DNA from: a virus | Strand: one strand, 5' to 3' | Virus record (IMG/VR): IMGVR_UViG_3300045988_167652 | Length of the DNA: 64,000 nucleotides | Shown: piece by piece, positions 2,413 through 63,404 of the stretch | Layout: the number at the start of each line of letters is the position of its first letter | Numbering within the stretch: position 1 is the first letter of the stretch | The notes under the pieces: model-generated | Seen by the model: only the letters and a program-made list of their open reading frames with translations | Told to the model about the DNA's origin: nothing | The model's database searches: none | Program-made: the position numbers and the translations under genes

Positions 2413-2444
2413 CTAATTAAATTAATTTATTACATATATAATAT

Positions 2445-16800: not shown

Positions 16801-17098
16801 TATGGGAGAAGCTCCTGAAGTAGTTAAAATTAATACTGGAGGTAGTGGAATTTCAAACATACAAACCAAAGTTATAACTTTAAATCTTCAAAGTCATACA
16901 GGAACTACTATTACTGTTCCTTGTGAAGGAGTGACTAACACTAATACTATTATAGTAGCTCCTGAACCTGCAAGTCAAAAGAATTATATGGATATGGGAT
17001 TATATGCTGCTGCATAGTTATAGGGAAATATAATTTTTAATAAGAAAGCATAGGCTTTTGATACTCCTATTAAAGTTAATGTACTTATATCAAATTGA
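13892..17098 (+). CDS. Large tail fibre or tailspike protein (1068 codons)
   Basis: Track fragments 14516, 14795, 15815 and 16796 share the frame of ATG 13892; I hand-checked the gaps. N-terminal fibre motifs LSDENYTLQEKQKL and TLGGVKIGEGI. Gly-rich linkers. TGA at 17096. Confidence 0.65.
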
Positions 17099-40434: not shown

Positions 40435-43400
40435 ATGGATAGAAGAACAATGAATCTTACGGATCATATCAATAAAATAACAGGTCTTGAAGGAAGAGAA
40501 GAATTAGATATAGATAAATTAATTGACAGTCAAGATAAACAATATAAAAATAACAGTTATCTTGAAAGTCTTAAACTAACCAAAAGACCTTATCAAAATG
40601 TCCTTAATGAAAATAATTTAAGGGAAAGTACTCCTATAGAAATTGAAGGTTATGGTAATTCAGTTTATGATGAAAATATTACTTTACCTTCACAACTTAG
40701 CAATATTAATCAAGTAAGATATGATTCTTAGAATGGATTATTATAGTTAGGAGCAGGTATAACTAAAGCAGGAATAATAGGAGTAACCACATGGCTTGAT
40801 GGAATGGTTGGTACTGCTGTAGGAGCTATTTAGGCTATAGGAGATGAAGTATATTCAGATGAAGAACTTGAAAGATTAAATAAACAAGGTGAAGAATAGG
40901 GAGTTCCCGAACATTTAAGAAGAAGAAGAGCTGAAGGAATAGGTGATTTCTTTGGTAAAATATTTAATGGAAATAATCTTGTATCTTATAAACTGAATGA
41001 ACTTAATAAGTGGTCTGAAGAAGCTCTTCCTGTATATAAAAGTGAAGAATATCTAAAGAATGAAGCTGAAGGAAGATGGGATAAAAATGTATTCAGTACA
41101 TCTTTTATAGGAGATAATCTTATAAAAAATATGGGATTTATGGTAGGTGCAGGATTATCTGCTAAAGGAGTTTCTTCAGTAGCTTCAAAAACACTTGGAC
41201 TTAATAGAGCAAGGAATGCTTTTAAAGGTGCTGTAGCTTTATTAGATAAAGGATTAGATGCTGAACAAACTTATAAAGCATTATTAAATGGTAAAGGAGT
41301 AATAAATGGTGTAAAACTTACTGATGAATTGGCTAAACAAGCTAAAATAATTCATACAAAAGGATTACTTACAAGTACTGTTGGAAGTATAGCTGGAGCT
41401 ATAGGAGAATCAAGAATTGAAGCAATAGATGGTTCAGAAGAATGGGCTAATAATGCTATACAGGAACTTGAAAACTCTAAACAAGATATGATATTTAAAG
41501 AACTTCGTAATATGCAGTAGAATAGTCCTGAATACTTTGATGAATATGGTAATATAACTGATGAAGGTAGAGAAGCTATTAATAATAGAGTATAGGAGCA
41601 GTATGATTCAGCACTTGAAAAAATACAAAAAACAAGGGCTTAGGTAGCTAATTAGATATTTATAGGTAATGCAGCATTATTATCTGTAGGAGATTTTTTA
41701 CAGTGGGGTAAATTTCTTAGAGGTGGATTTAATGTCCCTAAACAAACAAATCATATAGTAAAAAAATTAGCTAACGGTAATTACCAAATATAGAAAACAG
41801 GATTACTAAAAGGAGCTGGTAGAGTATTGGGAAATTCTTTAGTTGAAGGTCATGAAGAAATGGCTTAGGAAGTTATTAAAAACAGCTCACAGTATTTTAA
41901 TAATGGAGTACTAAAAGATTTTACTGGACTTGATTTATCTCCAGAAGGATAGGATTCTGCCGATAATATACTTAGTGCTTATATAAAAGGAATGAATAAT
42001 GTCTGGGGAAGTAAAAATAATTATCAGAATTTCTTTATAGGAGCTATCAGTTCTATGATAGGTATGCCATCAATAAGACTATCTAAAAACAAAAATATTC
42101 CTTTACCTATATTTGAAGGTAATATATATAATAATATTAAAGAGATAGTTTAGGAAAATAAGGATAAAAAAGAAATAGAAACATAGCTTAATAATTGGGT
42201 TAATAACTCAAAAACTAAAGAATATCGTGATGGAATGATTCGTCATATTTCGTTAGCATAGAGAATGGAAGAAGCTGCTATTCAAGATGATAAAATGGGA
42301 TATGAAACTCTTAAACATGCACAAAATGTAAGTGATGCTATTATGTTTGATAATGTAGATAGACTTGATGATTATAAAAGTAATATTCAAGCTATGTAGA
42401 ATCTTACTGATGAAGATATTGAATATATCAGACAGATTAAAACAGATAATGGAACATTATTATATGACAGTAAAACATCTGATGAATAGATAAGAGAAGG
42501 ATTTAAAAGTAAATCGGAAGGTATTTTATAGGATATAGACAGTTATGTAAAAGCTAATCAAGCATTAGAAACTTTAGCTTCTTAGTTATCAAAAAAAGAA
42601 AGAGAATTATTAGTTTATAAATAGAGTTTAATAGATAATCTTGAAAGAAGAAGAAACGAATTAATTGGCAAAGTAAATATATAGTTAGATAATATTACTA
42701 ATAAAGATACAGAAGAAGCAATAGCTATAAAGGAAAGTAATATTTATAAAAATAGAGATGTTAGTATTCCTAAAATCTTTCTATTAGGTAAATTAATAGA
42801 AAATGAAAAAACTAAACAGGCTATAGCAAAATCTTTAAATCCTTTTGAAGTATAGGATTTAATGAGAGATTATTCAGATTTTATAAAGATAGAAAATAAT
42901 AGAAGAAAACTAATAGATGATCTTTTTAAATCGATTAATAATATTGATTTGGTTAAAAAAGAGGTACAAAAGGTAATAGAGAATAAAGAAGAAGAATAGG
43001 ATAAAGTAGCAGCTAAAAAAGTAACTGAACAAATAAATCAAACTAATGATAAAGAAGAAAAGAAAAAAGTAATAGATGATGCTCCTATAGATATAATAGA
43101 ACAGATCGATGAAGAAGATTTTGGTCCAGCTGAACAATTAGCATTAAGAAGACGAAAAAGAATAGATGAAGAAAAGAGTTTTATACCTAAAGTAAATGAA
43201 AAATTAGGTATTGAAGGATACTCTAATGAACATTTAGTATCAGATTTTCATGTTAAAGCCATTGAAAAATTAATAGATTCTGGAGATGCTAATATAATAG
43301 CTAATAATAAAGAAGAAATAAGAGATTTTCTGTATAAAGCAGGTTACAATCCTGATCTTATTGAATAGAATTTAGATATAATATAGAAACTATTAAAGAA

Positions 43401-45870
43401 AATAGTAGATAAATCAGCTCTTTCTTTATAGGCTAATGATATGCTTAAATAGCAGGATATAGAAAATGAAGCTAATAGACAGAAATAGGAAGAAAAAGAA
43501 TTAAAATCAGAAATTGAAAAAACTGCTGAAACACTTGAAAAAGTTGAAAAACAAGAAAGAGAAAGACTACAAAAAGAAATCGATGATACAGTAAGAAGTA
43601 ATCCTACTTTAGGAGAAAAAATAGATAGGGAAAATATAACTTTTGAAGAAGTGGAAGAGTTTGATTAGGTTGGTAATATTCCTAATCAAGTAGAAGAATA
43701 GAAATCACTTAATCTAAGAATAGGATTATCAAGAAATAGTTTAGATAGAGAAGGGTATGAATCACTTAGTGAAGCATATAAAACAAGATAGATTTATGAA
43801 AACTTGGATAACTTAGATTTAAATGATTAGGAAATATTTATTTTTACTGATGGATTTACATTAGCTAAAAATGAAGAAGGTAAATATGTTCCTGTGGAAA
43901 CTCCTAATAAGATTGAAGGAGATTATTTCAGTAAAGAAACTATTAAACCTACTATATGGATAGCTACAGAAATTAATGGTAAGATATATTATTTAGGAAG
44001 TATAAATGTAAGTAGTCTTGAAAAAGTTGATCCTTATTTTAAAGGTAAAGTAAAAGAGTTATTTGATAGCTTTAATGAGGATAAAAAATATCATAGAGTT
44101 ACATTTAAAAAAGATGAAGTATAGATTACTCCTATAGTAAGATATCAAAATAATAATAAAGAAAAAGCAATTACTAAAGAAGAAATATCATCCTTAACCA
44201 AAGATAATCATCCTCCTATACTTACAGTAGTTAAAGGAGCTAAATTTGTAGGATTAAAGAAAGAACATAAAAGAACTCCTATTAAATTCAGTGATAAAAC
44301 AGGTAGGGAAGGAGCAGTGTATTTATGGTTATATGATAAACATTCGGATAAATATGTTCCCATGTTAATGAGAAGAAGAAGTGTCAATGAAATACTTTCA
44401 AACAGTAAAACAGCTTTGGAAGATTTAAAAAACAGTACTTTATTTAAATCATTTAGGAATGCTTTTGACACTTCATTTAAGAAATTCTTAACTGATTCAG
44501 CTACTAAAAGAGATAATAAATTATATATAGATAACTTTAAAGCATTGATGGATAAATTAAATCAAATCTTTGTTTTAAAAAGTGATGATCCATCAAGAAG
44601 AATTAGAATTTCTTATTCTAATGAGCCTAATGTTCCTAATACAGGATATTTAGTTATTACTAATGATACTAAAGGACAAGATAAATTCTTAGTTCCTACT
44701 ATGTCTTTTACAGTAGATAAAGATGGTAATATAGCTAATTATGAAGAATTAGTAGATAATATATTAAAAGCTATACTTACTATTAATCCTTTAATACAGG
44801 TATCTAATAATGAAGTACTACTTAATAATAACAATGAATCTTATTTAAATAGGTTAGTAGAAACAAACGTATTGACTACTAATCTTGAAAATGGGTTACA
44901 GGTAGAAGAAATTTATTTATCTTTGCAAGACAAACAAAAAAAAGAAAAAAGGAAAGAACAAATTAAAAAAGAGAATGAAAAGATAGATAACCTTTATGGT
45001 AAAACAAATACCGAATCTACTATTAATGAATCTCAAGAATCATAGAAAATCAAAGACTTTTTAAATAGTGATAAATATGAAGGAGATTATGATATATTTC
45101 ATGAAACATCCTTTTTAATATCTATGATGAAGCCTGTAATGTTAGAATTAGGTAAACCGTTTACAGTTGAAAATATAGAATTACAGGATAAAGGTAAATG
45201 GGGAGTATATAATTTAACCTTAGATACTAAAGGATAGTTAAACATAGAATATATAAAACCTTTAGATGAATCTATAAGTGGAACATTAACTACCGAAACA
45301 ACTTAGAACTTATCCCCCCAACCCCAACAACAAACAAATACATCTATCAAAGAAAGTAAAGAAAGTACTGTAGAAAATAAATCGAATAATAAACTTATAG
45401 AAAAAACAGATGAAGAATTATCTTAGGAGTTTGAAGATTTATTTGGTGAAGAATCATTAATACCTATAGTTTCAACTGCTTTAGTAGAATAGAAAACCAA
45501 AGAAAAAAGTGGTAATAATGAAGATAAGAAAGGTGGGAATTAGGGGGTAGGTTCTTAGCATAAAGAAAACCACATAACTAATGTATCAGAAAAGATGAGT
45601 GAAATTAAATTCAATTCTATAAATAAAAATAAAGTTGTTATATCTACTAAATATTTTGATATTGAAAATAATAATGGAAATACAAGTATTACATTAAAAG
45701 AAGATATTAATCCTACAGATAAAACTAAAGATATAATAGGTTCAATATTAAAAGAAATATCTTAGACAGATATGTAGAAATTATCAAGTAATAGTATAAA
45801 TAAAGAAAAAATAAATATAGAATAGAAATTAAATGCACTTATTCAAGATATTGAAAATTATAAATGTTAA
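40435..45870 (+). CDS. Large internal, ejection or cargo-type protein (1811 codons)
   Basis: Fragments 40435, 41131, 43894 and 44317 share a frame. I hand-translated from 41520 to the end and found only TAG interruptions. Gly-zipper hydrophobic segments and long coiled coils. Confidence 0.7.
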
Positions 45871-45891
45871 TTATAAATTAAATATTATATT

Positions 45892-48800
45892 ATGGCACAA
45901 TGTATAACCATAACTGATGAAGATTATAATAAAATAGCTTCAATCTTTAGTAAATACAATTTGAACATATCTAAACTTACTGCTTAGAAGTTAGTAAGTA
46001 TGATTATGACAGAAAAGAAAGAACTTTTTAATGGTAGTAATTTACCTTCAGAAAGAGAGTTACTTAACTTCTATTATAATCATAATGCTTTTCAAAAAGA
46101 AGTAATCCCTATTAAAGGCTACATAAAACTAAATGAGCAGAAAGAAATAATGTAGCTGAGAGATACTAATACTTATGAAGCTATCAAGTATTTAGCTACT
46201 AAAGATTCTATGTATAAACCTTTATTTGAATTACTTTCAAAAGAATCTTTTAAAGATTATTTTTCAGCTATTGATTTTAATATTATATCTCCTGAAAGAT
46301 ATTCGGGATTTTATAATAATCCAAGACATAGAGGATTTGGATATGGTAGATATGAAGCAGTTTCATCTTATTCAAAAGGAGGTAACGGAATAATTACTAT
46401 TAATGGTAATTATAGTTATTCATCTATGGAAGGAATATATCATACTTTAGCTGAAGAAATTATACATGCAGCTACTGTAAATGCCCTTAATTGGGAAGAA
46501 AACGGTGAGATTAAAAAGGGATTTGAATAGATTATTAAAGTATATAACAATTATTCAAAAGATAAATTCTTTAAGAGATTTGAAGGGGATAATTATGTAG
46601 AAGAATTTATAGCAGCCGTATTTCATCATCCTGAAATTGCACAAAGATTAAATGAAATAAGAGATGAAAAGAGTAAAACATTTTGGGAAAAAATTAAAGA
46701 TTATTTTAATAGAATCTTTAATAGTATCTTTAAAAGAATGTCTGGAGAAAAAGTAAAAGATGATTCTTTACTTGCAAGATTTGGTTCAGGATTATAGTTT
46801 TTATTTGATAATATAGAAAATAAAGGTATAGTAAAATTAACAGGTAAAACATATAATAAAAAGAAAGATGCTGCTGAAAATGCTATCGAAAGAATTAAAG
46901 AAGTTCTTTTGGAATATGGTATTAAGAATAATCAAAATCAAAATAAAGCTATTATAAAAGAAGGGGATACTTATACTGCTAATGCTCATATTATATATGA
47001 AGAATTTATTAACAGTACATTCAATAAAACTGAAAAAGGTATTTATCCTTTATCATTCTTCTTAGGTAATCTGTCAAGAAAACAAATATTTAAAAATGTA
47101 TTTGACTATGTGAATTTCCTTATAGGTAAAGAAGATGCTCTTTAGGATATATCCGAAGAACTTTCTTATGAAGAAAGATAGAATATGGCTACTGTATAGT
47201 CATTAATTTCTTCAGGAAGACTTTAGGGAGATACTCAAGATTTACTTTAGGCTTACAAATTTATTAATAGTATAAATAATTTAGATAGTATTTATACTCC
47301 TAAACAACAAAGACAAATCAGTAAGTCTATCTTTAGTATGTTTGAAAAGAAAGTTCAAGCTATTTTAGAAAGTGAGTTGGAAGAATATCAAAATAAAATA
47401 GATAATGCTGAAAAAGAAAAAGATAAAAAAAGATTTCAAAGAATCTATAATAAGTTATCTCCTGCAAATATAATTTAGTATAGAGGAGTAGACCCAATTC
47501 TTCAAAGTATTAAGAATGATTTAATATCTGCATACAGTAAGAAAATGTATCTTATTGATTCTATAGGATCATATACTACAGATAAACAAGAAAGAGTAAG
47601 ATTATACAAAGAAGCTATTTCCAAAGAAAATATTCAAGATACAGATATACCTGAATTTCTTAAAAGAATTATTCTTTACAACAAAGAAAACTATGAAAAT
47701 ATTATTAATAGCTTTGAAACATTAAAGTTATATACTTATCAAAATATTAAATACATCTATGGTGGAAATCTTAGAATAACTAATAATCCTATTAATGAAT
47801 TGGATGAACAGGGTAAAGAAGATATTGATAAAGAAACACAGACTAATGAATCTTTTAGAGTAAATTTTTTAACTGTTTCAGCTTATGATAATCTTACGGA
47901 AAAAGTAAGAAAACTATTATTTACTATTCCTGAATATCGTTTTAATGGTATTACTTATGAACCTATGATTGATATGTTAGGTTATCCTTCACATATTAAT
48001 TCAAGTATGGCTTATAAAGTAATTATTGATACAGTATATGATTCATATGATATGAATGATATGATGTTTAAACTTGAACAGTTATCAAATAGAAAAGACG
48101 GTAATTATTATTGGGTAAAATATATCATTGATAAGTTAAATAATGATTAGGATTCATAGAAACAGTTCTATAAAAACTTTAGAAAAACATTATAGAATTA
48201 TGTAGTTCAGACAGTAAAGAATGGAGTATTAATAAGTCAATCTGCTAATAAATCTATCGGTGGTAAATTCAAGGCTTTAGATATACAAAATAATATAGTT
48301 ACAGGATAGCAATTTGCTGGTGAAGATACTGTATATAATAGTGAAGGTATTATAGAAGTAGAAAAACTTGATAATATTTACTTAAAAGTAAATGAATTAT
48401 TAAGTGATTACATACAATAGGGAGAATCTGTAGAAGCATTATGGGAATTTTTAAATAATGAAGAGAATAGAAACAAACTTGAATTATGTTTTAAAGCTGT
48501 AGGAGTTTTAATAGATGTAGATCAGTTAACTTATAATCTACAACAACAATCTGATCCTTCAAAAGTATTTAGTGAAATACTTGAAAGACTTAGTCATATT
48601 ACTAATAGTTCTTCCTATTATAATAAGAATAAAGATACTTTTGAACTAAATAAATTATGGGAAAATAATGTTGGGGCTTATACAAGAATAGCTCATTTAG
48701 TTATTGATTAGGAAGCTACATCATTTGATCCTTCAGTAAGACAACAAAATAAAACTTACTATGGATATACTGAATCTTCTTATTTTGATTCAGTAATAAG

Positions 48801-51800
48801 AAATTTGAAGAATCTCTATAGAAACACTGTTGAAAATAATAAAGGTATAAACTATCATCAAAGAGCGTTAGATTATATAAGTAAACATTTCCTGAATGTT
48901 CCTTTCTTTAGTATATAGAAAAATAAAAAACAATTCATTTTATCAAGATGGATTAGAGAACTAACTGAAAACAATGAAGAAGGCCAAGATTTAAGAGATA
49001 ATTTAAAAATCAATACCATTATTTCACATAATAGGAAAGATTTTAGTGATCTGGATGATGTGGAAAGAGTATTATTATAGCTTGCTGAATATTTTAATAG
49101 TGGAAATAAAGATGAAGCTAAATATGCTAATTTTGTATTACCTGCATTAGGTGATGCCTCATAGCCAAGAAGTATTACATTTAAAAGAATAAATGATATT
49201 TAGCAGGGAGATAGATTAGTAACTACTAAAGAACAAGTAATTCAAGAATTAATTAATACGGTAATACAAGAAATTAATCGTATTAATCAGACTAATCAAA
49301 TTGAAGGATTGGATATAGCATACTATAAAAATAATGCCGCTAAATTTGTATTTTTCCCACAGCTTAATAAAACCATAAAAGAAATATTATCAAAAGAAGA
49401 AATTGAATCTTTAGGACTTACTAAACATCAAGATAAAACTGTACTTGAATTAAAAACTAAAGAGAAATCAACATTCTTAATTCAATTCTTTGATAATTAC
49501 TTAACCAAAGGATATGAAAAATGGGATAATACATAGAAAGAAAGAGGATTATATGATAGTCCTAAATTTCAAGCTATCAAACCTACTTTAGGAAACCTTG
49601 AAAATTTCTATTATAATTATGTATTTGCTTAGACATAGTTACCATAGTTACTGATAACTGATTTAGCATTTGTAAAAGACCCTATTGATTATCAAAAGAG
49701 ATTAAAAGCTACTATTAATGGTACAAGTAGTTCAAATACTTCTCCTTATTTTTCCGATGAAGTAAACGAAGTAAAGAAAGATAATGAAATGGCTGTAATT
49801 ACTCTTAGTGATGTTAAAGTAGATACTAATACTTTTCTTAATTCTACAGGAGTAATTAAAGCATTAAAGAGAAATCCTAAACTATCGGACATAGATATTA
49901 GAAATATATTAAGTAAATTTAAGGGTATTACAGCTACTGATGGACAGTCTTTTGTTACTCTTGATTTTATTAAAAAGATAATGCAGTCTGATGGTGAATG
50001 GACTGATATGATGTAGCAAAGTTATGATAATCTTGTATCAGGAAACTGGGATATGAATGACTTTGATTAGTTCTATCAGGCAAGAAAAGCTATGTATAAT
50101 GGAACTAATGTTCATGAGTTTACTTTAAAAGATGGAACTAAAACTACTATTAGAGTTCCTTCTTATCATAAATATTCGGAATATGTTTTACTTGCAATGT
50201 ATGGAGCATTTTCATAGACAGTACTTGGTGAAAACAGTTCTATGGCTGCTATTAATAAATTTATGGTTAAGAATAACATAGACTTGTGTATGTTTGAAAG
50301 TGCCGGTAAAACAGGTAATCAAAAAGTAGTGGATATTAGTGGGTTTGAAGAATTGTCAGAAGATGAAAAAGAAACATTCCTTAATGATAAAATCCTTAAA
50401 ACTAATAAAATTAAATTAGTTAGTATGGATAATTATGGTATGTAGTAGTCAAATCCTGAACATTTATATGATAACCATAGAGAACTTAGTACATAGTTAA
50501 AAAGAGCTATTATAAGCAATATTCCTGAAGATGCGGAATTTACTTTACAGAATGGTCAAAAACTAAATAAACAACAGTTTGTAGAATTATATTATGCTAC
50601 TTTATTATCGGAAAAAATAGATAATTACACAGCTAATTATGATAAACTGACTGATATGAATGCTATGTCTAAAGAATTAATATCTTAGGCACTTAGTGAT
50701 AAAGAATCTTCTATTGACGATATTAAAAAACTGACTTATAATCCTTCTACAGGAAATTTTGCTATTCCTGTAGGTGAACCTCTAAGTGGTTCAAAGTTTA
50801 TGTCTAAGTATTGTTCGTTAGTAAGAAATAAAGTTATTCCTAACAGTACTGAAGGAGGTTCAATTGTTTAGGTAAGTAATTTTGGATTTATAAAAGATAA
50901 AAACTTACAGGTAAAATATAAAGAAGGACAAGACAAATCCATTGAAAATATAGAATATATAGGATGTTATATGCCTATGTATACTAAGAAATTATTTGAA
51001 AAATATATGGATGATGAAGGTAATGTAGATATAAATAAAATGCCTGATAATGTAAAAAAATTAGTAGGTTATCGTTTACCTTTTGAAGATTTTTATTCCT
51101 TACTTCCCCTTAAAATAATTGAATTTTTACCTGAATCTTCAGGTTCTTCAATTATAATGCCTGCCGAATTACTTGCATTAACAGGTTCTGACTTTGATAT
51201 TGATAAATTATATTTAGTAGTACCTTAGTTAAATAATGAAGGAGATAGAGAAGAATATGAGATAAATATGAATGATTTACAAGGTAGTATTCTTACTATG
51301 ACTAAAGGATAGAGAAATAACCTTTTACTTGATTTAATCTATTCAAGAGCCACTCATCCTACTTCATTAGAAAGAATGCTTAATGGAGGTGAATTTGAAG
51401 ATTTAAAAACTGCTTCATTACTTACTTAGATTCGTAAAATTCCTAATATAGATAATATATTAATGAAAAAATGGAATATAAGTAAGATATCTCATTTATA
51501 TAGAAAATTATATTCTTTAGAACAGGACGAATTAAAAAGTATATTAAATGAATATAAAGAACCTGTTGATTGGTTTGATCCTGAAACATTCATTTATTTT
51601 AATAACTTAAATCATGCAGCTGCTGTGGCTATTGCTACTTTTGCTAATGCTAAAAGTAATGCTCACTTGCTTCCTGAATTTATTCCTCATGAACCTTTAA
51701 GCATTAATATGGGTAAAGAAAAGATAGATAAAGTACTATCAGAATCAAAAAACCCAAAAATGATTATTAAAACTAATGATGGAGAAGTACCTTATTGGTT

Positions 51801-54800
51801 TACTATTACTGAAACAGTGGATAAAAACGGTAAAGTAGATTCAAAAACTCATATATTCAATGAGATTAATGTACCAGAATCTTTAGACATATCCAAATAT
51901 AAAAATACAGTTCATGCACTTGCAGAATTAATTTCAGCTGCTGTAGATGCTGTAAAAGACCCTGTATTGTCATTCTTAAATCTTACTAAAGAACTAAATA
52001 TAATAGCTCCCATGCTTATTAGATTAGGTATGTCTGATAAAATGATGGGATTATTTATGACTTAGCCTGTTATTGAATATATCATTAAAAAAGCGTCCTC
52101 GAATAATAGATTAAGTATGAATCAAATCATATAGAATGTATTATATGATTTAGATTCAAAGATAGCTCAAATTGAAAGTTAGAATCCATAGAATGATAAT
52201 AGAAATGTATTTATGGATACTGAAAGTATGATTGGACATACAGGTAAAACTAAAGAATTAGAATAGTTATTAGAGAATAATAATGAATAGGAAAATAATA
52301 TATACCAAGAAGATAATTTAATAAATTCTTCGGATAATTTGTTCTTCTTAAAGAAATAGTTGAATGTATTATATGTATTTAAAAATATATATGCTAAAGC
52401 CAAAACATTAAATGAATATGCTGTAACACATAAACCCGATTCAAAAAGCTCTATGGCTAGAGGTTCTTTATTTGATAATATAGCTAAAAAAGTAAGAAAA
52501 GAAAACTTAGTAAAAGAGTTAGGTAAACACTTTGCTAATATACCTATATTACAAGATACATTTAATAAAGATATAATTACACCACCCTCAAAAATTGCAG
52601 GTGATAATTATGGTAAATAGATGAAAAAGTATAAAGAATAGATGCTTAAATACTTTATGAATCAAGATTTACCACTTGTACAAATGGATTATACTTTAGG
52701 TATTCTTGCGCCTATTTACTTTAATATAAATAGATTTCCACAGCTTAGAAAGCAATTTTCTTATATAGTAGATGAAATTAGTAAACAATCTAAAAATAAT
52801 CTTCTTTCAAGACAGTATGCTGAACAGGTTTATAAAATGTATTATACATATTTACTTAGTGAACCTACTAATGGATTACTTGGAGGAAAAGAAATTAAAC
52901 CTGCATTCTTAGATAAAACTTTAAATACTTATGAAGATAAAAGACAGTATTATTTAAATGGATTTGTAAAGAATCTACAAGAATATAAAAGAGCTAAAAT
53001 AAATAAACTTCCAGCTGATAGAAGAAATGCAAGAAATTCATCTTTTATTAAATTATTAGCTCCTTATAATAAAGGTATAATATTAAAAGGATAGGGTACT
53101 GCAAGAGTAGATAAAAGAGATATGCTTAATGCTGATTGGGCAAATCTTATGAAAAGTGATGTTGAATTTGAAAGAAATTTAGCAAGGGATATATTTATCT
53201 ATGAATTATTTAAGAATGGAGCTGGTTATACTCCTAATGGTATATTACAATATGCTCCTATGGAAGTTATCAGTAGTATAGAAGGATATACTGATATAGC
53301 TTTAGATAATTCCATACTCGATAACATAGAAAATGATGATACTTACGAAGAGTTCTTAAATATATATGTAAGAAATAATTTAAGGACATTTGCTTAGGTT
53401 ATTCCTGAACATGAAAATCATTATTTTAAAGATGCAAACGGATATAAACCTACCTTAAACACTGAAAATTTATCCACTACTTTTTATAATAGTGAATATA
53501 AAACCAAATATATTTAGATAGGTTAGGGAAATAATGCCGTATTCTATAAACTAAATTATGATATTGATCCTTTTACAGTAGATATTATAGATAGAGGGTA
53601 TGAAAAGATCACTCCTTTAAATATGTAGTATCAATATGGTAATCCTAATGCAGTAGCTATTGATAATACATTAAAACAAGCTGGATAGAGTTCTTTAAGT
53701 ACTATGAATGAAGAAGAATTATCTATGCTTGCAGGTATGAATGATCCTTTTGAAGATGCTGATATGATGGAATAGATGGCTGCTATGCAGGCTATGGAAG
53801 ATAAATTATTTAGAGAATAGAATAATAAACAGTAGGAAAATACAGAAGATACTAATATTAAAGAAGTAGAAGAAGTATCTAAATAGATAGATAATATCTT
53901 AGGTAATACTACTAAAGTAGTATCTACATTAGAAGAAATTGAAAAATTAAAAGAAATAAAAACAAAGAAAGTAACTTTAGAGATACAACCATTTATACAG
54001 GATGGTAAGGTATTCTTTAAAATTATTCCTGTACAAAGAGGTATATAGAACTCTGTATATTTTAATGTAAGATTAGGAGAACTTCAAAATGGTATTAGAG
54101 CAGCTGATAAATTAATGGAATTTGCTTCTCAGAATGATATTTCTGTAGAACAACAATTACAAAAGGATTTAAATGCTAATGGTACTGTTACCTTTATTAA
54201 TGATACTTCAAGTAAGATAAAAGCTATTGTTTAGATAGCTAAAGAAAGTAATCTCGAACAGTTTATTAATAGGTTAAGCGAAGAATTATCTCATGCTGCT
54301 ATAGCCTTTTCAAGTAATGAAGCCTATATTAATGAAATTATTTCACCTCTTCAAAATGATATTGAAATGGTTAAAGAAATATTAGGAGATGAATATGATA
54401 ATTATTATTAGATTTATAATGGTAATGAAAGATATTTAGCTCTTGAAGCATTAGGAAAAATAGTGGGTGAAGCTACAGGAGGATTAATATCTCAAGGAAC
54501 AAATATCAAAGGAAGTGTAATAGGTAGAATAATGTCTATTATAAAAGATAAATTCAGAGGATTAAATGAAGAACAATTAGTTATTATTTCTTAGATATTT
54601 AAGGATGATTCTCCTATTGTAAGAGATATGATTAATAATTTATTAGGAGAAATTAATGGTACACTTGCTTCAGAAGTTATGAAAGATATTCCTATGTAGA
54701 TGTATTAGCTTAATTAGAAAATAAGTCTACAAGAATAGAAACATAATATAGCTTTAAAAGCTATTAATGATTTAATTGATGCCGAAATAAAACGAATTAA

Positions 54801-57603
54801 TATTATTAAAGTTACAAAATCAAGTGATATTTAGGATACTTAGGAATTAAACAGGCTTATTAAAGCAAGAAACTCTTAGGAAACTGTTAAAGGTATTCAT
54901 ACAAGAATAAAAGAACTTAATAATGTTCTTAGAGGGCATTTATACAGATTAAAAGAGTTAATATAGAATCAGGATGAAAGGGATGAAATAAGTGCTAAAT
55001 CTTTAAGAAATATGAGAGATACTTTAATAGCCTATCAAAAACAAGTAGATATTATAAGAGAATTTGATATAGAACTTGAAGGATTAAGTGATGAAGAACA
55101 AATAGAAATAAATAATGAATTAAAAGAAATTATAGCTGATTGTGAAGAAGTTTTGAAACGTTCTTTTAATTACTGGAAAAAGATATCCAAAGCTAAATTT
55201 ATGTCTTTTGTAGGTAAAATAGTTCCTGAAGGAGTAGTAAGAATGATGAATAAAATAGATGGTTCTACTAATACTTTAGAAGATTATGTATTTACAGCTA
55301 ATAGGGATATTTCTTTTTATGATAGATGGTTAAGAGCAGCTGGTGATAGTAGAGATTTTGTAATTAGATTATATGATGATATATTAAAAAGAGCTTAGAT
55401 TAACAGAGTTCATAAATCTTAGGAATATAAAAGAAAGATAACAGCTTTACAAATAGAACTTGAACAATCTACAGGTAGTTCAGATACTTCATGGATGTAT
55501 GAAAAGAATGCTAAAGGAGAAATAATAGGATTTATTAGAGAACTTGATTATACTAAATATGAAAAAGAAAGAAAACAGGCTATATTAGATATTTATAGTA
55601 ATACAGATGATCCTAAAACAGCATCGGATTTAATTAATAAATGGGTAGTAGAACATACTGAATTGGATGAAAATAATATACAAAAACCTAAAAGATCGCT
55701 TTATGGTAATCCTATATTCGATAATTTATCCGAAGGATAGAAAAAGTATTATAAATCCATTATAACCCTTAAAAAATTAATGGATGCAACTATGAAACTT
55801 GAACCTATTTAGTATTATAAACCTATTTACATTTCAAACACTATGACATAGAGATTAAAGAATACTAAGAGTGTTTAGGATGTAAAAGATATAATGAAGA
55901 GCTGGTATGATACTAATATAGGAATAAGAAAAGATGACACTGATTATAATAAAACAGTTGCCGTAATAAAAGATTTTGAAGGAAATGTGGTACAAACATT
56001 ACCTAAATTCTTTACTTCTCCTTTAGAAAATCTTAAAGATGTTTCTACCGATGTTACTTCAGCTATGATAGCCTATGCTGATACAGCAGTTAATTTTGAA
56101 GTAATGGAAGAAGCTGTGGGATAGATGGAACTTGGTAGAATTGTTCTTAGAGACAGAAAGATTTCAGAAACAAAAGATGATAAAGAATTAGTAAATAAGA
56201 TTAAACTTTCAGGTTATAATATCATTCAAAAAGTATTTAAGAAAACATCCAAATCTAATTTTGAAGCAAGATTAGATGACTTTATGGAAATGAATGTTTA
56301 TAATCATTATTATAAGGATGAAGGTAAGGTAGGTTAGTTATTAAATACTTTAGGTACAGTTACAGCTATTAATGGTTTAGGAATTAATGCTATTGCAGGT
56401 ATATCTAACTTATTTACTGGTGGAGCAATGTTTAATATTGAAGCTCTTAGTAATAATCATTTTAAACCTAAACATGGTATAAAAGCAGATAATATTTTCT
56501 TTAAAAATTCATTTGCTTTAATAGGAGATGCCGGCAAAAGAGTAAAAACATCAAAAATAGCTTTATTCCTTGAACATTTTGATGTTTATCAGGATTATAC
56601 CGAAAACATAAAAAATAGTAATGTAGGAACTAAGAATTGGTTACTTAGAAATATTGGATTAGATTCTATGTTTATCTATAATAAATTAGGTGAAACTTGG
56701 TTATAGGCAAGAGTACCTTTAGCTTTAGCAGTAGCTACTGAATTAATAGATAAAAATGGAAATAAAATAAGTCTTTGGGATGCTTTAGAAGTAGTAGAAA
56801 CTAAGAATGATGAAGGTAAAGTTATTTCTTCAAAACTTCAATTTAAAGATGAATATGAAGGATTAGATGGAAAAAAGCCTGATGAAATTATAGCTGAAGT
56901 TATGAGAAAAAGTAATAAAATCAATAATAATTTGAATGGTATTTATCATAAACAAGATATATATGCAGCTTAGAAATATTCAGTTGTAAGAATGGGATTT
57001 ATGTTTAGAAAATTCATATTACCCGCTCTTGAATATAGATATAAAGGACAGACTTATAACTTTGACTTAAATAAAACTACTGAAGGATTTTATCATACTA
57101 TATGGAGACTTAGAAAAGACATTCTAAAGAATAGAACAAATTTACTTGTATTTTATAATAGTCTTGAAGATTATGAAAAGGCTAATATAAATAAAGCATC
57201 TATAGAAGTATTACAAGTATTTATGATATGGTTAGCTATAGGACTTATAGGTAAAATTGATGGTGATGATGATGATGATAAAGCTTATTTAGCAAGAATA
57301 ACCGAATTACAATTAAGAAGACTTTATACTGAAACTTCAGTGTTTACTCCTTCTACAGGAATGATTAATGAAGGTCAAAGAATACTTAAATCACCCGCTG
57401 CTTCAGTTAATACATTAGATAATATGTTAGGATTACTTGAGCTTCTTGATCCAAGAAGTTATACTACTGAACTTAAATCAGGGAGGTATAAAAGACATTC
57501 AAGAGCTTATAGAGCTATTGACAGAAATTTACCTTTTAAACGTCATATATATAACATAGTAAATCCTGAATTATTATTACCATTCTATAAACAAGAATAT
57601 TAA
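45892..57603 (+). CDS. Giant 3903-codon ORF containing the crAss-type virion RNA polymerase domain
   Basis: 17 track fragments (46210 ... 56992) all share the frame of ATG 45892. I hand-checked gaps 46530-46909, 48150-49309 and 53397-55012 and found only TAG. Catalytic-type motif GSDFDIDKLY (DFDID at 51190-51204). TAA at 57601. Confidence 0.8.
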
Positions 57604-57634
57604 TCAAAGCAGACACAAACGATCAAATTTTTTA

Positions 57635-57672
57635 GGGAAGATAGTTTTATATTCTATCTTCCCTTTTATTTT
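57635..57672 (+). terminator. Rho-independent terminator between the convergent blocks
   Basis: GGGAAGATAG (57635-57644) pairs with CTATCTTCCC (57654-57663), followed by TTTTATTTT. The site is 31 nt after the giant ORF stop and 10 nt from the end of the leftward gene. Confidence 0.7.
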
Positions 57673-57673: not shown

Positions 57674-58312
57674 TTATTTTGTGGTTTTAATAGGATACAC
57701 ATATAAACTAACAATTCTTCCATCAATAATATTTTTTGTATATTCAAAGAATGGAAAATCTTTAATAATAGTGTCTACTACTTCAATAATATAATTATTA
57801 TTTAGTGATATTTCAATACAATCATCCCCATCAACTATGAAGTTATTATATATTCTTTTTACAATATCTTCATACATTTCTTGTTTTACTTTCTTTTCAT
57901 TATCTATTAGAGATAATTTTATATCACTATAGTTTTCCCAGAAATTTGTAAGTTTTTCCTTACACTTATCAAAATCACTTTCTTCTTCTTCATTTTCTTC
58001 ACCTTCATTTTTAAATACTGAATTTTGAGCATATTCAGCAGCTCTAACCATAGCTTCAATATCTATGAAAGCTTTATTAAGAGAGTCTTCTACCTCTTCT
58101 TTTCTACTTTTTCCTATAGTAGAAACATAAGTTTCTGCTAAGTATATTTTTGTTTTAACTTCAGCTATTAAGGAATCTATATTATTTAATAAATCAGTTT
58201 TATTTTTATCGTTTCTATTACAATTTTTTATATCTTCCGACATTTTTTCAAGTTTACTGATTATGTTATTAAATTTAGTGTAAATTCTTTCTGATAATAT
58301 TTTCTTGTCCAT
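57674..58312 (-). CDS. Hypothetical protein (212 aa)
   Basis: Intact standard-code ORF with a helical, acidic N-terminal half and a beta-rich C-terminus. Ends in TAA. Confidence 0.65.
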   Translation of the reverse strand: MDKKILSERIYTKFNNIISKLEKMSEDIKNCNRNDKNKTDLLNNIDSLIAEVKTKIYLAETYVSTIGKSRKEEVEDSLNKAFIDIEAMVRAAEYAQNSVFKNEGEENEEEESDFDKCKEKLTNFWENYSDIKLSLIDNEKKVKQEMYEDIVKRIYNNFIVDGDDCIEISLNNNYIIEVVDTIIKDFPFFEYTKNIIDGRIVSLYVYPIKTTK

Positions 58313-58319
58313 AAAATTT

Positions 58320-59150
58320 TTAATTTAATTCTTGTATTATATTATGAAACACTGATTTAAAAAATAATATTACGTTAGAAGGCATTAATATGTTGCTTTT
58401 ATATTTAATATTGTTGTTTATTATTTTAATATAGTCATTTAAAACTTCTTTTATTCCTATTAAATTAAATTCTTCATAATTCAAACTGATAAAATTATTA
58501 TGATATGTGTTTGTAATATAACCAAGAAATCTTACATTCTTTTTTATAATGTTATATTCTTCTAAAGGTAAATTTATATTATTACTATTCCAAACTAATT
58601 TAGGGTGATAGTTATAATGTTCAAGTTCTTTATATAATTCATATATTTCAAATGCTCTATTTTCAAATGTAGTATCAAGTCCGTTTTTAATTACCCATTT
58701 ATATAAATAGTTTACTATTATTTTTAAATCTGCAATATGTTTACTTGAATTTGATTTTGTGTTTATACAATCTTCTTTAGCTATAATAATATCAAGTGGA
58801 TCGGCTATTTTGTATGTATTTCTCAGATATTTTATATTTTTTATTTTGACATTATCAGTATTAAAAATATCTATTAAAAATCCTGTTTCTTTATGTTTTA
58901 GTTTATATAGTTTAAATTTATAATCATATTCTTTTTCATCAGATTCATCAGATTCATCAGGATTTAATAATTCAAATATTTCATTATCATACCCAAATTC
59001 TCCACTACGTACAAAATCCAAATCATGTATAGGTCTTTTTAAATCTATTCCCAACATATTAAAGACAGTACTACCAGTTAATACAGTTCCAGGAATGTTA
59101 TTAAATACATCATTTATTACCTTTAATTTTATATCATCTATCTTAATCAT
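58320..59150 (-). CDS. Nucleotidyltransferase-fold (Pol-beta superfamily) protein
   Basis: N-terminal pattern LTGSTVFNMLGIDLKRPIHDLDF (G-S-x15-D-x-D, coordinates 59016-59075), with a later acidic strand FLIDIF. Confidence 0.55.
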   Translation of the reverse strand: MIKIDDIKLKVINDVFNNIPGTVLTGSTVFNMLGIDLKRPIHDLDFVRSGEFGYDNEIFELLNPDESDESDEKEYDYKFKLYKLKHKETGFLIDIFNTDNVKIKNIKYLRNTYKIADPLDIIIAKEDCINTKSNSSKHIADLKIIVNYLYKWVIKNGLDTTFENRAFEIYELYKELEHYNYHPKLVWNSNNINLPLEEYNIIKKNVRFLGYITNTYHNNFISLNYEEFNLIGIKEVLNDYIKIINNNIKYKSNILMPSNVILFFKSVFHNIIQELN

Positions 59151-59649
59151 TTATATATAAGATTAAAGAAGTAAATAAACTCATAAATGCCCACATTTCT
59201 AAATAAAACATCCAACTCTTCCTATTTAATAAATATAATATAAGAAACATTAAAGCAATATTAAGGGGAACATACCAATATTTTATAGCTACTAAATAAA
59301 TCCAAAGAATAGCAAATATCATACATATAATAGCCGAAATAAAATGTATTTTCTTATTTATAGTTTTAAAATAAGGCGCTGTACCTACAAAAGCTAATGC
59401 ACTTGCAGCTATAAAAGGTATAAATTGTAATATTTTAGGAGTATGTTCTAACCATACAGGCATTATACTAAAACATATAACATAACAAAATATAGTAAAG
59501 GCATAAGACATATTCCATTTAATATCTTTATATCCTTTTTCAAGTAGATAAAAAGAATCTGAAATACTTTTAGGTATTCCATATATAATACATATTGAAG
59601 AGATATAGAGAACAAAAAAACTAATACCAAAATAATATAATAACTCCAT
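59143..59649 (-). CDS. Polytopic membrane protein (168 aa, about 5 TM segments)
   Basis: Successive hydrophobic segments in the translation. Its stop overlaps the start of the downstream NTase gene (58320-59150) by 8 nt. Confidence 0.65.
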   Translation of the reverse strand: MELLYYFGISFFVLYISSICIIYGIPKSISDSFYLLEKGYKDIKWNMSYAFTIFCYVICFSIMPVWLEHTPKILQFIPFIAASALAFVGTAPYFKTINKKIHFISAIICMIFAILWIYLVAIKYWYVPLNIALMFLILYLLNRKSWMFYLEMWAFMSLFTSLILYIND

Positions 59650-59675
59650 AATTTTAAATTTTTCTTTTTAATATT

Positions 59676-60272
59676 TTATTTAATCTTTCTTTTATATACT
59701 TTTATGAGTTTATCAAAAGCTTTTAACCTTGATTCTTCATCATTATTATCCCACCAACAACCTCCTTCTTTATATTTAGCATTAAGAAAATCTTTATTAA
59801 ATTCGGGAATAATAAAAGGTATAGTCAAAAAACTATGTATAGTATAAGGAAAAGATTTTGTAATACATATACACATATATGAGGCTATTCCATCTTCACA
59901 TATCTTCTTAGCTTTTATAAGAGTATTAAGTATTAATTCATTTGTTATTTTATAATTCTTTTTATATATCTTACATTCATAAATACTAATAAGCTGATCT
60001 AATGCTTCTTTTCTACTTTGTATATCTTTCCTATCCCACCAAATACTATTTGCATTTCTTTTTACTCCTGTAAGAAATTCTGACGTAAATTCAGGAATAA
60101 TTTCAGGAATATTACTACATAATATAGGTGTAGACCTTATAGATAAATAATTAACAATAGCAGTACCAATAGCATCACATAGATAAATTTTACTACCTGA
60201 ATATATGCTATCATAAGCATTTAATAATATATTTAATATATCCTTATTAGTTAAATTATATTCTGTTTTCAT
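59676..60272 (-). CDS. Hypothetical protein with an internally duplicated domain (paralog 1)
   Basis: Two repeats of ...C....IPEF..[ED]FL......WWD....SR..A.D.LI..Y. Confidence 0.65.
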   Translation of the reverse strand: MKTEYNLTNKDILNILLNAYDSIYSGSKIYLCDAIGTAIVNYLSIRSTPILCSNIPEIIPEFTSEFLTGVKRNANSIWWDRKDIQSRKEALDQLISIYECKIYKKNYKITNELILNTLIKAKKICEDGIASYMCICITKSFPYTIHSFLTIPFIIPEFNKDFLNAKYKEGGCWWDNNDEESRLKAFDKLIKVYKRKIK

Positions 60273-60293
60273 ATTAATTTAAATATAGACTTA

Positions 60294-60977
60294 TTAAACA
60301 ACACAGTAAAAATAAAATACTTTTCTGTGAATTATTTTATTCAATATTCTCTTAACGAATAATCTTATTTTATTCAATATTCTATAATTATAAACTTTTT
60401 CTTCATATATTTCTATTAGCTTATCAAAAACTATTATTCCTTCTTCCTTATTTTTTAATTTTGACAGGTGTATTTTATTATTGTACTTTGAATTAAAAAT
60501 TTCTTCACTACATTCTGGAATAAGTTTATATAATAAACTATCAGACATATAAATACAAGATAAAGCATGTTTAAGATTTAAATGAACATTTTGATAATAA
60601 TTCCTTATATATAATTCTTTTGCTCTTTTAATGAGTTCAAGGGTTTTTTTATTCTTTGGTTTTTTATCTCTTTTAAAAATTTTAAGTGTATATATGTCTA
60701 TAAGTTTAGTTAATACTTCTAATCTACTTGTTTTATCATTTATATCCCACCGTTCTTTATTGGTACTTATTTTACGTCCTACAAGAAATTTAGAGTTAAA
60801 TTCTGGTATATAATTTCTTATACCTAAATAAGTAACAAAATTAGAAGTACATATATACAAAGAATAACTAAGAGCCTCGCATAATAATATACTTCTATCA
60901 TAATAAACTTTTTTATAAGCTATATATAGAACTTCAATAATATCTTTATCAGATAATTTTATATTTTCATGATTCAT
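60294..60977 (-). CDS. Hypothetical protein with an internally duplicated domain (paralog 2)
   Basis: Same IPEF...WD...SR...L..LI.IY architecture as 59676-60272. The second repeat is degenerate. Confidence 0.65.
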   Translation of the reverse strand: MNHENIKLSDKDIIEVLYIAYKKVYYDRSILLCEALSYSLYICTSNFVTYLGIRNYIPEFNSKFLVGRKISTNKERWDINDKTSRLEVLTKLIDIYTLKIFKRDKKPKNKKTLELIKRAKELYIRNYYQNVHLNLKHALSCIYMSDSLLYKLIPECSEEIFNSKYNNKIHLSKLKNKEEGIIVFDKLIEIYEEKVYNYRILNKIRLFVKRILNKIIHRKVFYFYCVV

Positions 60978-61173
60978 AGTTAGGTATTAAATATAATTCT
61001 TTATTTATTTTAAAAGGACTTTCATCACTTATTTTTACTAATATAGAATTAATAATATTGTGATATTCTGATGGAATAACGAGAGGAAAATATTTATTAT
61101 TATATTTAACAGTAATAATATAATCTCCCTCTTCTATTTTATCAAGTTCATTTTGATTTTTATTTTTGTCCAT
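60967..61173 (-). CDS. Hypothetical small protein (68 aa)
   Basis: Intact ORF whose end overlaps the start of the next gene by 11 nt. Confidence 0.5.
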   Translation of the reverse strand: MDKNKNQNELDKIEEGDYIITVKYNNKYFPLVIPSEYHNIINSILVKISDESPFKINKELYLIPNYES

Positions 61174-61195
61174 AATTTATTGTTATAAATAAAAT

Positions 61196-61220
61196 AGGGA
61201 AGATTTATATTATCTTCCCT
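61196..61220 (-). terminator. Rho-independent terminator after the MazG-ending operon
   Basis: AGGGAAGAT (61196-61204) pairs with ATCTTCCCT (61212-61220). On the minus strand a T-rich run follows the hairpin. Confidence 0.6.
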
Positions 61221-61236
61221 AAATTAATATATTATT

Positions 61237-61803
61237 TCAACATGTTTTACCATGTTTATATCCTCTATGTGTATTATATTCCATCTTTTGATAAACATGC
61301 CAATCAATTGGAATGTTCCAATGTTTTACTAATAAATCAAGATAATCTAATGCCACACAAATTGAATGTGTATTATCATTTCCCCTTGAAATAATTCTTG
61401 TTACTTCAAAACATTCTTCTAAAAATGATTTAAAGTTTGTTTTTACAATGTTAGTTTTATTTGATGGATCATCAAAATCAAGATTTATAGCTCCTGCATA
61501 ATCATATAATCTGATATATACATCAGCTATTTCATCTTCAACAGTGTTTTTAATATTCTTTTTAAAAGATTCTTGTAGCCCTAAAAGTTTATTATCTCTT
61601 TGAAAGGCATCATAATCAGATTTATGATTATTTCTATATGCTTCTACAGCTTCACAAATCTCACTAATAACAAGCATCATACTATGTTCATAAGGATGTT
61701 GTACTTCCCAAAATCCTTTTTTTACAGCATTACTGTGAGCAAGTTTTTTATATTGATTTCTTGTTAATTTACCTGTTTTAAATACTGCTTCTTTAATATC
61801 CAT
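61237..61803 (-). CDS. mazG: MazG-like all-alpha nucleoside triphosphate pyrophosphohydrolase
   Basis: Pattern GFWE...MLVISEICEAVEAYR...EDEIADVYIRLYD...KMEYNTHRGYKHGK is typical of the MazG/NTP-PPase family. Confidence 0.7.
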   Translation of the reverse strand: MDIKEAVFKTGKLTRNQYKKLAHSNAVKKGFWEVQHPYEHSMMLVISEICEAVEAYRNNHKSDYDAFQRDNKLLGLQESFKKNIKNTVEDEIADVYIRLYDYAGAINLDFDDPSNKTNIVKTNFKSFLEECFEVTRIISRGNDNTHSICVALDYLDLLVKHWNIPIDWHVYQKMEYNTHRGYKHGKTC

Positions 61804-61806
61804 ATT

Positions 61807-62247
61807 TTATTCACAATTCATTAATGCGTTATACATTCTATCTATTGCTTCTTTAGGGACTTTCCTATCTCTTCCTTCTATATTTTTCATAGCTTTTTCA
61901 GGTGTACACATAAGAAAACAGTACTCAATTCTATAACCATTATCTAACGCTAACTTTTCAAGTTTCCTTCTTGTTTTTATATAACAATTAGTGTCATCAA
62001 TGATTATAGTATTATCTCTTAATATAGCTTCTTGAATGGCTCTTAATTCAAGTTGTTTTACTAAAAATTCTTCTTCTTTAGTATATCTGTAATTAGGTTT
62101 GGTTTCCCTTATTTTATCTCTTGAAATATATTCATACTGTGGATTATTTTCAAGGATTTTATTAGCTGTAGTAGTCTTACCGCTACCTGGAATACCTACC
62201 ATAACAATAAAGGTTCTTTCAAGATTATTATATTTACTTATATCCAT
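61807..62247 (-). CDS. P-loop kinase (AAA_33 or polynucleotide/nucleotide-kinase-like)
   Basis: Walker A GIPGSGKTT near the N-terminus. I trimmed the start to the Met at 62247, one nt after the upstream stop. The track ORF extends to 62328. Confidence 0.65.
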   Translation of the reverse strand: MDISKYNNLERTFIVMVGIPGSGKTTTANKILENNPQYEYISRDKIRETKPNYRYTKEEEFLVKQLELRAIQEAILRDNTIIIDDTNCYIKTRRKLEKLALDNGYRIEYCFLMCTPEKAMKNIEGRDRKVPKEAIDRMYNALMNCE

Positions 62248-62248
62248 A

Positions 62249-63163: not shown

Positions 63164-63404
63164 TACTTTCTAATCTTTTTCTTGTAGCTATTTCTTTATT
63201 TAAATACCAAACAGCCTTTTCTAAATCTTCAATCACCTTATCTTTATCTTTTTTATCTGCTCTTAATATATATTTAATAGCATTTCCTCTACAGAATCCT
63301 AAAAGTGATATAACTCCTGTATAATCTTCTATCACATCAATTACTTCAGTTCTTCCTGAAGTATAATGTTTAGGATGATTTACATTGTCTTTAATTTCCT
63401 CCAT
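63156..63404 (-). CDS. DUF3310/SaV-like phage protein
   Basis: Pattern HPKHY...E.IDVIE......F..GNAIKYILR...K.....DLEKA.WYL matches my recollection of the DUF3310 family. Confidence 0.6.
   Translation of the reverse strand: MEEIKDNVNHPKHYTSGRTEVIDVIEDYTGVISLLGFCRGNAIKYILRADKKDKDKVIEDLEKAVWYLNKEIATRKRLESNE

Follow-up and report, generated by a model that had tools for sequence, protein, structure and literature searches.

A TAG-recoded crAss-like phage carries a 3,903-codon gene predicted to fuse a virion RNA polymerase with zincin-like and gp49-type modules

We analysed a 64,000-nt stretch of viral DNA, IMG/VR virus record IMGVR_UViG_3300045988_167652 (the window), and in particular one giant open reading frame (ORF) at positions 45892 to 57603. 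The source is a crAss-like (Crassvirales) podophage whose closest relatives lie in the beta/Steigviridae group. The giant ORF is very probably a late gene whose product, a virion cargo protein of 451 kDa, is made up of a zincin-like domain, a two-barrel RNA polymerase (RNAP), an acidic linker and a part of the gp65/gp49 type. The ground for this conclusion, established below, is the frame itself, the meaning of TAG within it, the homology and order of its modules, its catalytic motif, the barrel fold and purifying selection. The features of the ORF, with residues numbered in amino acids (aa), are:

45892 to 57603, plus strand: giant ORF, 3,903 sense codons from an ATG start to a terminal TAA, predicted product 451 kDa.
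46309 to 46791, plus strand: probable N-terminal zincin-like domain (about aa 140-300), placed with moderate confidence from weak BLASTP, tblastn and hhalign matches.
47653 to 53559, plus strand: predicted virion RNAP module (aa 588-2556), collinear with residues 209-2265 of crAss001 gp50.
50872 to 51225, plus strand: stretch free of TAG (aa 1661-1778), predicted to form the catalytic double-psi beta-barrel (AlphaFold2; predicted local distance difference test (pLDDT) 68, predicted template modelling score (pTM) 0.62).
51190 to 51204, plus strand: DFDID, the predicted catalytic metal-binding motif (aa 1767-1771), from alignment with gp66 and gp50.
51895 to 52074, plus strand: segment aa 2002-2061, matched by BLASTP to residues 1598-1654 of phi14:2 gp66 (E 0.002), a range that includes the gp66 trigger loop (1598-1636).
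53560 to 54105, plus strand: inter-module linker (aa 2557-2738), delimited by composition, identity profile, indels and dN/dS.
54106 to 57600, plus strand: RNAP-associated cargo module (aa 2739-3903), predicted gp49/gp65 ortholog, from BLASTP, a hidden Markov model (HMM) and a motif survey.
57193 to 57264, plus strand: the sole strongly hydrophobic segment in a Kyte-Doolittle scan (aa 3768-3791, VLQVFMIWLAIGLIGKI), followed by DGDDDDD.

A preliminary description of the window had proposed a single 3,903-codon frame interrupted by TAG only, with 17 shorter fragments all in the frame of the ATG at 45892. Computation bears this out. The 11,712 nt contain 76 in-frame TAG, no TAA and no TGA, and translation with the standard code cuts the region into exactly 17 plus-strand fragments of at least 60 aa (46210-57603), every one of them in the frame of 45892. 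The description's estimate of about 25 TAG codons between 53397 and 55012, the gap between two of these fragments, was too high: we counted 20. Upstream, the first TAA in frame ends at 45876. Within the interval itself, the two remaining frames hold 225 and 614 TAA and TGA codons, so the open frame is far from a product of chance.

The frame is also conserved. Two other IMG/VR contigs (L002 and L003; about 92 kb, ~96% aa identity) carry a frame of identical length, 3,903 codons, with 71 and 79 TAG, respectively, and no TAA or TGA. In codon alignments with these two relatives the ratio of nonsynonymous to synonymous substitution (dN/dS) is 0.10 over the giant ORF as a whole. By part, the first 587 aa give 0.09-0.10, the RNAP module 0.07 and the C-terminal module 0.13; selection is most relaxed in the linker, at 0.16-0.27. 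All modules of the giant ORF are under purifying selection.

Because the standard code breaks the region into short fragments, one might take the long frame for an artefact: an assembly chimera, a frame whose stop codon was lost, or a pseudogene in decay with many nonsense mutations. We give this next to no credence. The frame is kept in three independent assemblies, dN/dS is about 0.10, and TAG is the sole in-frame stop type in a region whose other frames hold TAA and TGA by the hundred. TAG moreover swaps with CAG and CAA and sits at conserved glutamine (Gln) positions, and the genes for TerL, the portal and the major capsid protein (MCP), like other long plus-strand ORFs, show similar TAG use. 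The three-assembly frame, dN/dS, the TAG-only stops and the TAG-Gln interchange together exclude a pseudogene or an assembly artefact.

In the plus-strand (late) block, TAG means Gln. Of the codon differences that involve TAG, 29 of 31 in each of the two relatives exchange it with CAG or CAA. The catalytic core has 15 TAG columns, and in these Gln makes up 43% of the residues of twelve distant standard-code homologs, against a background of 4.7%, and position 1535, a TAG here, is Gln in all 12. Once only TAA and TGA are read as stops, long ORFs follow one another almost without gaps on the plus strand between 2.4 and 57.6 kb, and they contain 324 in-frame TAG. TAG accounts for 41% of Gln codons in the giant ORF, much as elsewhere in the late block (42%); the giant ORF is therefore not special in its use of TAG. 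The genes that bear on this reading are:

2341 to 2413, plus strand: suppressor tRNA with anticodon CUA (ARAGORN; Rfam tRNA model, 68 bits).
5573 to 7915, plus strand: TerL, Crassvirales match in PHROGs, 13 in-frame TAG.
8019 to 10361, plus strand: portal, Crassvirales match in PHROGs, 18 in-frame TAG.
22407 to 23909, plus strand: MCP, Crassvirales match in PHROGs, 4 in-frame TAG.

The tRNA(CUA) has a standard cloverleaf with U1-A72 as its first pair and likely decodes the in-frame TAG codons; the label 'Pyl' that ARAGORN gives it follows from the anticodon only. The window has the marks of a TAG-to-Gln recoded phage, namely TAG in conserved essential genes, its Gln meaning, a tRNA(CUA) and recoding limited to the late block. 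Such recoding, mostly of late genes and with phage suppressor tRNAs, has been published for groups beta, delta and zeta of the crAss-like phages (Yutin 2021). The phage studied here resembles them in its TAG codons in TerL, portal, MCP and RNAP, its suppressor tRNA and its late-block recoding, and differs from them in no qualitative respect. Its lineage has no GenBank phage representative at the nucleotide level: megablast of the giant ORF against GenBank phages found no near-identical relative. TerL is 43-47% identical to the proteins of IAS virus, the cr85, cr111 and cr126 metagenome-assembled genomes and crAss001-type phages.

The middle of the giant ORF is homologous to the virion RNAPs of crAss001 and phi14:2, both of which are classified as Crassvirales, family Steigviridae. 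The best-scoring characterised homologs of the ORF are crAss001 gp50 ('putative RNA polymerase', 2,412 aa) and gp49 ('RNAP subunit', 1,349 aa), which are collinear with it at 23-33% identity. BLASTP aligns the RNAP module with gp50 in three high-scoring segments (1e-28, 1e-85 and 1e-32), and tblastn of aa 1301-2100 leads to the 'putative RNA polymerase' of crAss001 and its relatives at E values of ~1e-78 to 9e-78, with 118 phage records. For gp66, the phi14:2 enzyme, experiments have shown that it is an RNAP delivered by the virion; the three aspartates of its DFDID are essential. Residues 1236-1791 of the giant ORF match residues 860-1385 of gp66 (BLASTP, E 8e-24), and DFDID, in the context LALTGSDFDIDKLYLVVP and with GYRLPFEDF upstream, aligns exactly on 1361-DFDID-1365 of gp66 and on DFDVD 1483 of gp50. 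Across 13 sequences, D537, F538 and D539 are conserved almost without change (at least 90%).

The structure predicted for the TAG-free segment around the motif is consistent with these alignments. Its top Foldseek match is gp66 itself (6vr4_A; E 9e-4, probability 1.0, query TM-score (TMq) 0.57), followed by RNAP beta-prime subunits (AR9, PhiKZ, RNA polymerase II, African swine fever virus, plastid) and then by other double-psi beta-barrel folds. The motif-bearing domain is thus modelled, with moderate confidence, as a double-psi beta-barrel. On the side of the second barrel, sequence homology reaches upstream over gp66 860-1360. Together these results support the view that the DFDID region forms the catalytic loop in a virion RNAP of the two-barrel crAss type, and RNA synthesis is predicted. 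Directly after DFDID, at aa 1772-1805 (51205-51300), the module is without an insertion of ~60-90 aa that gp50 and gp66 both carry.

The preliminary description had placed DFDID at 51190-51204 with GYRLPFEDF upstream, had seen in it the metal-binding loop of a double-psi beta-barrel virion RNAP, and had taken the extra length of the ORF for added modules. Both motifs read as it gave them, the alignment on gp66 and the Foldseek match to 6VR4 agree with its assignment, and the extra length does fall into modules on either side: a gp49/gp65 ortholog at the C-terminus and, at the N-terminus, ~590 aa with a probable zincin-like domain.

The C-terminal 1,165 aa are, by sequence homology, the ortholog of crAss001 gp49 and phi14:2 gp65. 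Residues 2739-3901 match gp49 175-1349 at 8e-161 and residues 3455-3881 match gp65 942-1399 at 5e-21 (both BLASTP), and an HMM of the N-terminal region of gp49 (gp49-N) matches aa 2740-3023 at 7e-27. The hydrophobic segment near the end of this module is a candidate membrane-inserting helix. Between the cargo module and the polymerase lies the linker, whose core (aa 2600-2670) is acidic and rich in Met and Gln. Of all 100-aa blocks in the ORF, the least conserved lies in the linker, as does one of the two sites at which indels distinguish the three genomes.

The junction between the two modules could also be read as a point where no single chain is made. Leaky TAG stops in this Gln-rich stretch would then give mostly an RNAP-only product of ~290 kDa with a minority of full-length protein, or internal initiation would supply the gp49-like part. 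Residues 2401-3000 do hold 21 TAG, compared with about 5-7 per 300 aa elsewhere; most relatives keep the two modules as separate genes; and in three surveyed loci (L065, L069 and L072) the two genes lie in one frame and would be joined if TAG were sense. The excess, however, is largely one of Gln-richness (21 of the 39 Gln codons there are TAG, and 76 of 185 overall), and with z about 1.6 it is not significant even before correction for the choice of the region; we rejected the enrichment as a significant signal. TAG also stands for invariant Gln residues in the catalytic core, which lies upstream of the junction, so that even the RNAP part could not be made without efficient read-through, and the 3,903 codons are free of TAA and TGA in all three genomes. 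We consider production as separate chains quite improbable and a single full-length chain the better reading.

The first ~590 aa of the giant ORF extend beyond the part that aligns with gp50. This region probably contains a zincin-like domain, an assignment of moderate confidence and the least certain part of the annotation. The sequence EEIIH (aa 188-192, nt 46453-46467) stands where relatives have HE[IV][IL]H, and downstream of it YVEEF resembles their VFEF. Residues 176-276 (LAEEIIHAATVNALN...YVEEFIAAV) weakly match the zincin of gp65 (ILHEIMHDFTV...VHEFISEV) at a BLASTP E of 0.23 in a small database. With tblastn, the N-terminal region matches (E 0.002) the HE[IV][IL]H N-terminal domain of L061-type RNAP ORFs, standard-code ORFs of 3,640-3,974 aa from another Crassvirales group (L058-L065), to which megablast found no match among GenBank phages. 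That L061-type domain in turn matches the gp65 zincin at 8e-6. Profile-profile comparison with hhalign puts the motifs in register (E 2e-4), and a conserved xEF motif ~45 aa downstream aligns the giant N-terminus, the L061 group and gp65. A TAG codon at aa 213 falls within the domain. Two other origins for the domain, a displaced gp47 C-terminal zincin or a close paralog of gp49-N, were rejected, since the HMMs of both failed to match.

A second motif of this kind, EELSH (aa 2797-2801, nt 54280-54294), occupies the conserved (P/S)EExxH position of the cargo module. Both zincin-like motifs are EExxH rather than HExxH, both are kept in L002 and L003, and neither copy has the canonical HExxH signature. 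We surveyed fusions in 80 diverse IMG/VR loci. (P/S)EExxH was present in all 49 of the gp49-like modules surveyed (L005-L084), mostly as LPEEFAHFA, so EExxH is a conserved variant and not a sign of decay. Canonical HExxH was seen in phi14:2 gp65 (HEIMH), L073 and L076. The equivalence of EExxH and HEIMH is based on pairwise and profile alignments, and MAFFT put the HEIMH of gp65 ~8 residues off the EExxH column. The change from His to Glu at the first metal-ligand position is conserved in gp49-type modules.

These motifs bear on whether the product stays in one piece. The fusion might be a polyprotein precursor that is always cleaved, by its own zincin-like domain or by another phage protease, giving separate mature proteins as in crAss001 and leaving the fusion without functional consequence. 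Cleavage, which the preliminary description also thought possible, is the hypothesis published for fused forms, the linker is acidic, of low complexity, least conserved and tolerant of indels, and zincin-like domains lie on both sides of it. In both motifs, however, the first zinc-binding His is replaced by Glu, which argues against a simple self-cleaving zincin, and no cleavage-site motif was identified in the ORF. The 49 modules with (P/S)EExxH come from phages whose genes are already separate, and the motif therefore has no fixed link to the cleavage of a fusion. We regard obligatory cleavage as plausible without being probable. At the opposite end, the fusion might be a functional design: an uncleaved chain would tether the polymerase to the gp49-type module via the hydrophobic helix at the site of DNA entry, or the junction TAGs would set the ratio of RNAP-only to full-length product, and the EExxH domains would bind metal or partners without proteolysis. 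This we think unlikely.

Several results weigh against the assignment of the ORF as a zincin-like, RNAP and gp49-type cargo protein. Pfam gave no match to the full giant protein at E up to 1, PHROGs none to any of its three thirds, and a PDB sequence search, with E up to 10, none to aa 1301-2600, the middle third. Such libraries do not reach a family this divergent, so that the identification rests instead on homology, pairwise and by profile, at 23-33% identity. Confidence in the barrel model is only moderate, given its pLDDT, and the model of the bridge-helix/trigger-loop region (aa 1847-2057) is too poor for use (pLDDT 55). For the N-terminal domain, the hhalign probability is only 21%, and the HMMs of gp49-N and of the C-terminal zincin region of gp47 (gp47-C) miss it. 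A word-indexed search of 5.8 billion proteins returned no relative of aa 1-600, and phmmer of aa 89-212 against 1.84 billion representatives returned two weak multi-stretch matches, apparently compositional. The first His is absent from both motifs, which makes protease activity doubtful, and we do not file the ORF as an active zincin. Virion packaging, ejection, timing, early-gene transcription and any cleavage are carried over from relatives.

What is known of those relatives suggests how the protein may act. In crAss001, gp47, gp49 and gp50 have been detected in virions as cargo ejected by partial unfolding, and packaging in the virion and Mg-dependent activity, known only for phi14:2 gp66 and crAss001 gp50, would by analogy apply here. 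The giant gene would be translated only once the phage tRNA(CUA) is available, that is, late in infection. The 451-kDa product would be packed into the capsid and be ejected, partially unfolded, before or together with the DNA; its polymerase part would then transcribe the early genes, probably including the TAG-free block of the minus strand. Cleavage at the linker may or may not occur.

The arrangement resembles in outline that of phi14:2, with which the phage shares the gene order g067-g066-g065 and homology to gp66 (virion RNAP, PDB 6VR4) and to gp65, an RNAP-associated protein with a zincin-like domain. The catalytic motif reads TGSDFDIDKMY in gp66 and TGSDFDIDKLY here, and gp66 is the best structural match of the barrel model. 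In phi14:2, however, gp66 and gp65 are separate, whereas here one ORF joins the two through a linker of ~180 aa. The RNAP part here also has about 380-590 extra N-terminal residues that bear the zincin-like motif, EELSH stands in place of the HEIMH of gp65, identity is 23-25%, and phi14:2 is without TAG recoding. As for crAss001, its gp49 carries the same variant motif, as EEFAH. Unlike here, gp50 and gp49 of crAss001 are separate adjacent genes, gp47 is on the opposite strand and the code is standard.

Among the surveyed loci, most crAss001-like phages have an RNAP gene (about 2,250-2,750 aa) and a gp49-like gene that are separate and adjacent. Fusions take several forms. In L080 (5,544 aa) and L082 (5,638 aa) a gp47-C-like part, the RNAP and the gp49-like part form a single standard-code ORF; in L073 and L076 the RNAP and the gp49-like part are fused, with canonical HExxH; L054 and L015 join a gp47-like part to the RNAP; and L061 and L066 join a gp65-type zincin to the RNAP. 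The giant ORF differs from those of L080 and L082, which have the gp47-C-like part fused upstream and use the standard code: here gp47 is separate, the N-terminal domain appears to be of the gp65 zincin type, as in L061 and L066, and there are 76 TAG. Fusion of the three virion proteins in crAss-like phages has been noted in the literature (Yutin 2018). RNAP genes of Crassvirales reach about 6,000 aa, and protein boundaries in the transcription block vary. Fused giant RNAPs and late-gene TAG-to-Gln recoding are both already documented for Crassvirales; the giant ORF, judged by its homologies, is one more permutation of modules (zincin-like, RNAP, gp49-like), in a recoded lineage.

In three of the surveyed loci, standard-code RNAP and gp49-like ORFs lie in one frame, with junctions at ~13093 (L065), ~13147 (L069) and ~13495 (L072). 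Reading TAG as sense joins them, extending the ORF from 3,876 to 5,173 aa, from 4,381 to 5,678 aa and from 3,096 to 4,625 aa, respectively. These junctions could be ordinary TAG termination, or they could be read-through or incipient recoding.

The virion RNAP of coliphage N4 and other Schitoviridae (about 3,500 aa) is likewise giant and packaged in the capsid, is ejected with the DNA and transcribes early genes, a parallel drawn in the literature as a functional analogy. The N4 enzyme is a T7-like single-subunit polymerase and not homologous, whereas the enzyme of the giant ORF is predicted to be two-barrel. No similarity to T7-like RNAPs was found with Pfam (E up to 1) or, for aa 1301-2600, with PDB (E up to 10).

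The surroundings of the giant ORF include these features:

40435 to 45870, plus strand: upstream ORF of 1,811 aa, homolog of crAss001 gp47 (BLASTP 6e-97), 42 TAG.
57634 to 57664, no strand assigned: perfect 11-bp hairpin (AGGGAAGATAG / CTATCTTCCCT) with a 9-nt loop, read by eye from the sequence.
2229 to 2301: tRNA-Met, between the region at 1-2228 and the suppressor tRNA (2341-2413).

The gp47-like ORF occupies the position of phi14:2 g067, directly upstream of the giant ORF. The two share a reading frame, with only five sense codons and a pair of TAA codons (45868-45870 and 45874-45876) between them. Downstream, 31 nt past the TAA of the giant ORF, the hairpin lies between the converging plus- and minus-strand blocks with T-runs on both sides, and is likely a bidirectional intrinsic terminator. 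A pattern scan missed it because its 9-nt loop exceeds the 8-nt limit of the scan. Beyond it, the minus-strand ORFs at 57674-63861 tile under the standard code; they contain no in-frame TAG and none ends in TAG. GC skew reverses where the plus-strand block gives way to them. None of the eight minus-strand ORFs (156-304 aa) in this interval had a Pfam match at E up to 1e-3, and because Pfam gave nothing, the early-gene role that we presume for the block follows from its position, its strand and its lack of TAG only.

TAG-free ORFs also occur inside the TAG-rich plus-strand block, at 21158-22342, 23983-25017, 28453-29136, 2812-3198, 3810-4232 and 4565-5032. The 394-aa ORF at 21158 is very acidic, Lys- and Glu-rich and scaffold-like, and in the MCP gene TAG accounts for 4 of 16 Gln codons. 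TAG may be avoided in the most highly or earlier expressed structural genes. Two other plus-strand ORFs, at 10459-12327 (622 aa) and 13892-17098 (1,068 aa), have repeated segments with runs of Gly or Gly-Ser (GGGGGS, GGGGGGG) between them, a layout typical of modular tail-fibre or tail-spike proteins. At the left end of the window, positions 1-2228 form a region of about 2.2 kb with 23% GC and near-zero GC skew, in which neither strand has an ORF above 77 aa; it could be regulatory, an origin or terminal.

These findings open no new biological question and will not surprise specialists. Standard annotation breaks the largest and most characteristic protein of this phage into 17 fragments, and the case shows how recoded genomes must be read. 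It should be of use for the annotation of such genomes and for the choice of constructs and targets in work on polyprotein cleavage. For the family, the giant ORF adds an arrangement to the shuffled modules of Crassvirales (gp47-like, zincin-like, RNAP and gp49-like), which are joined and split by the gain and loss of stop codons. Loss of the two stops between the gp47-like and giant ORFs would yield a three-module polyprotein of ~5,700 aa, like those of L080 and L082.

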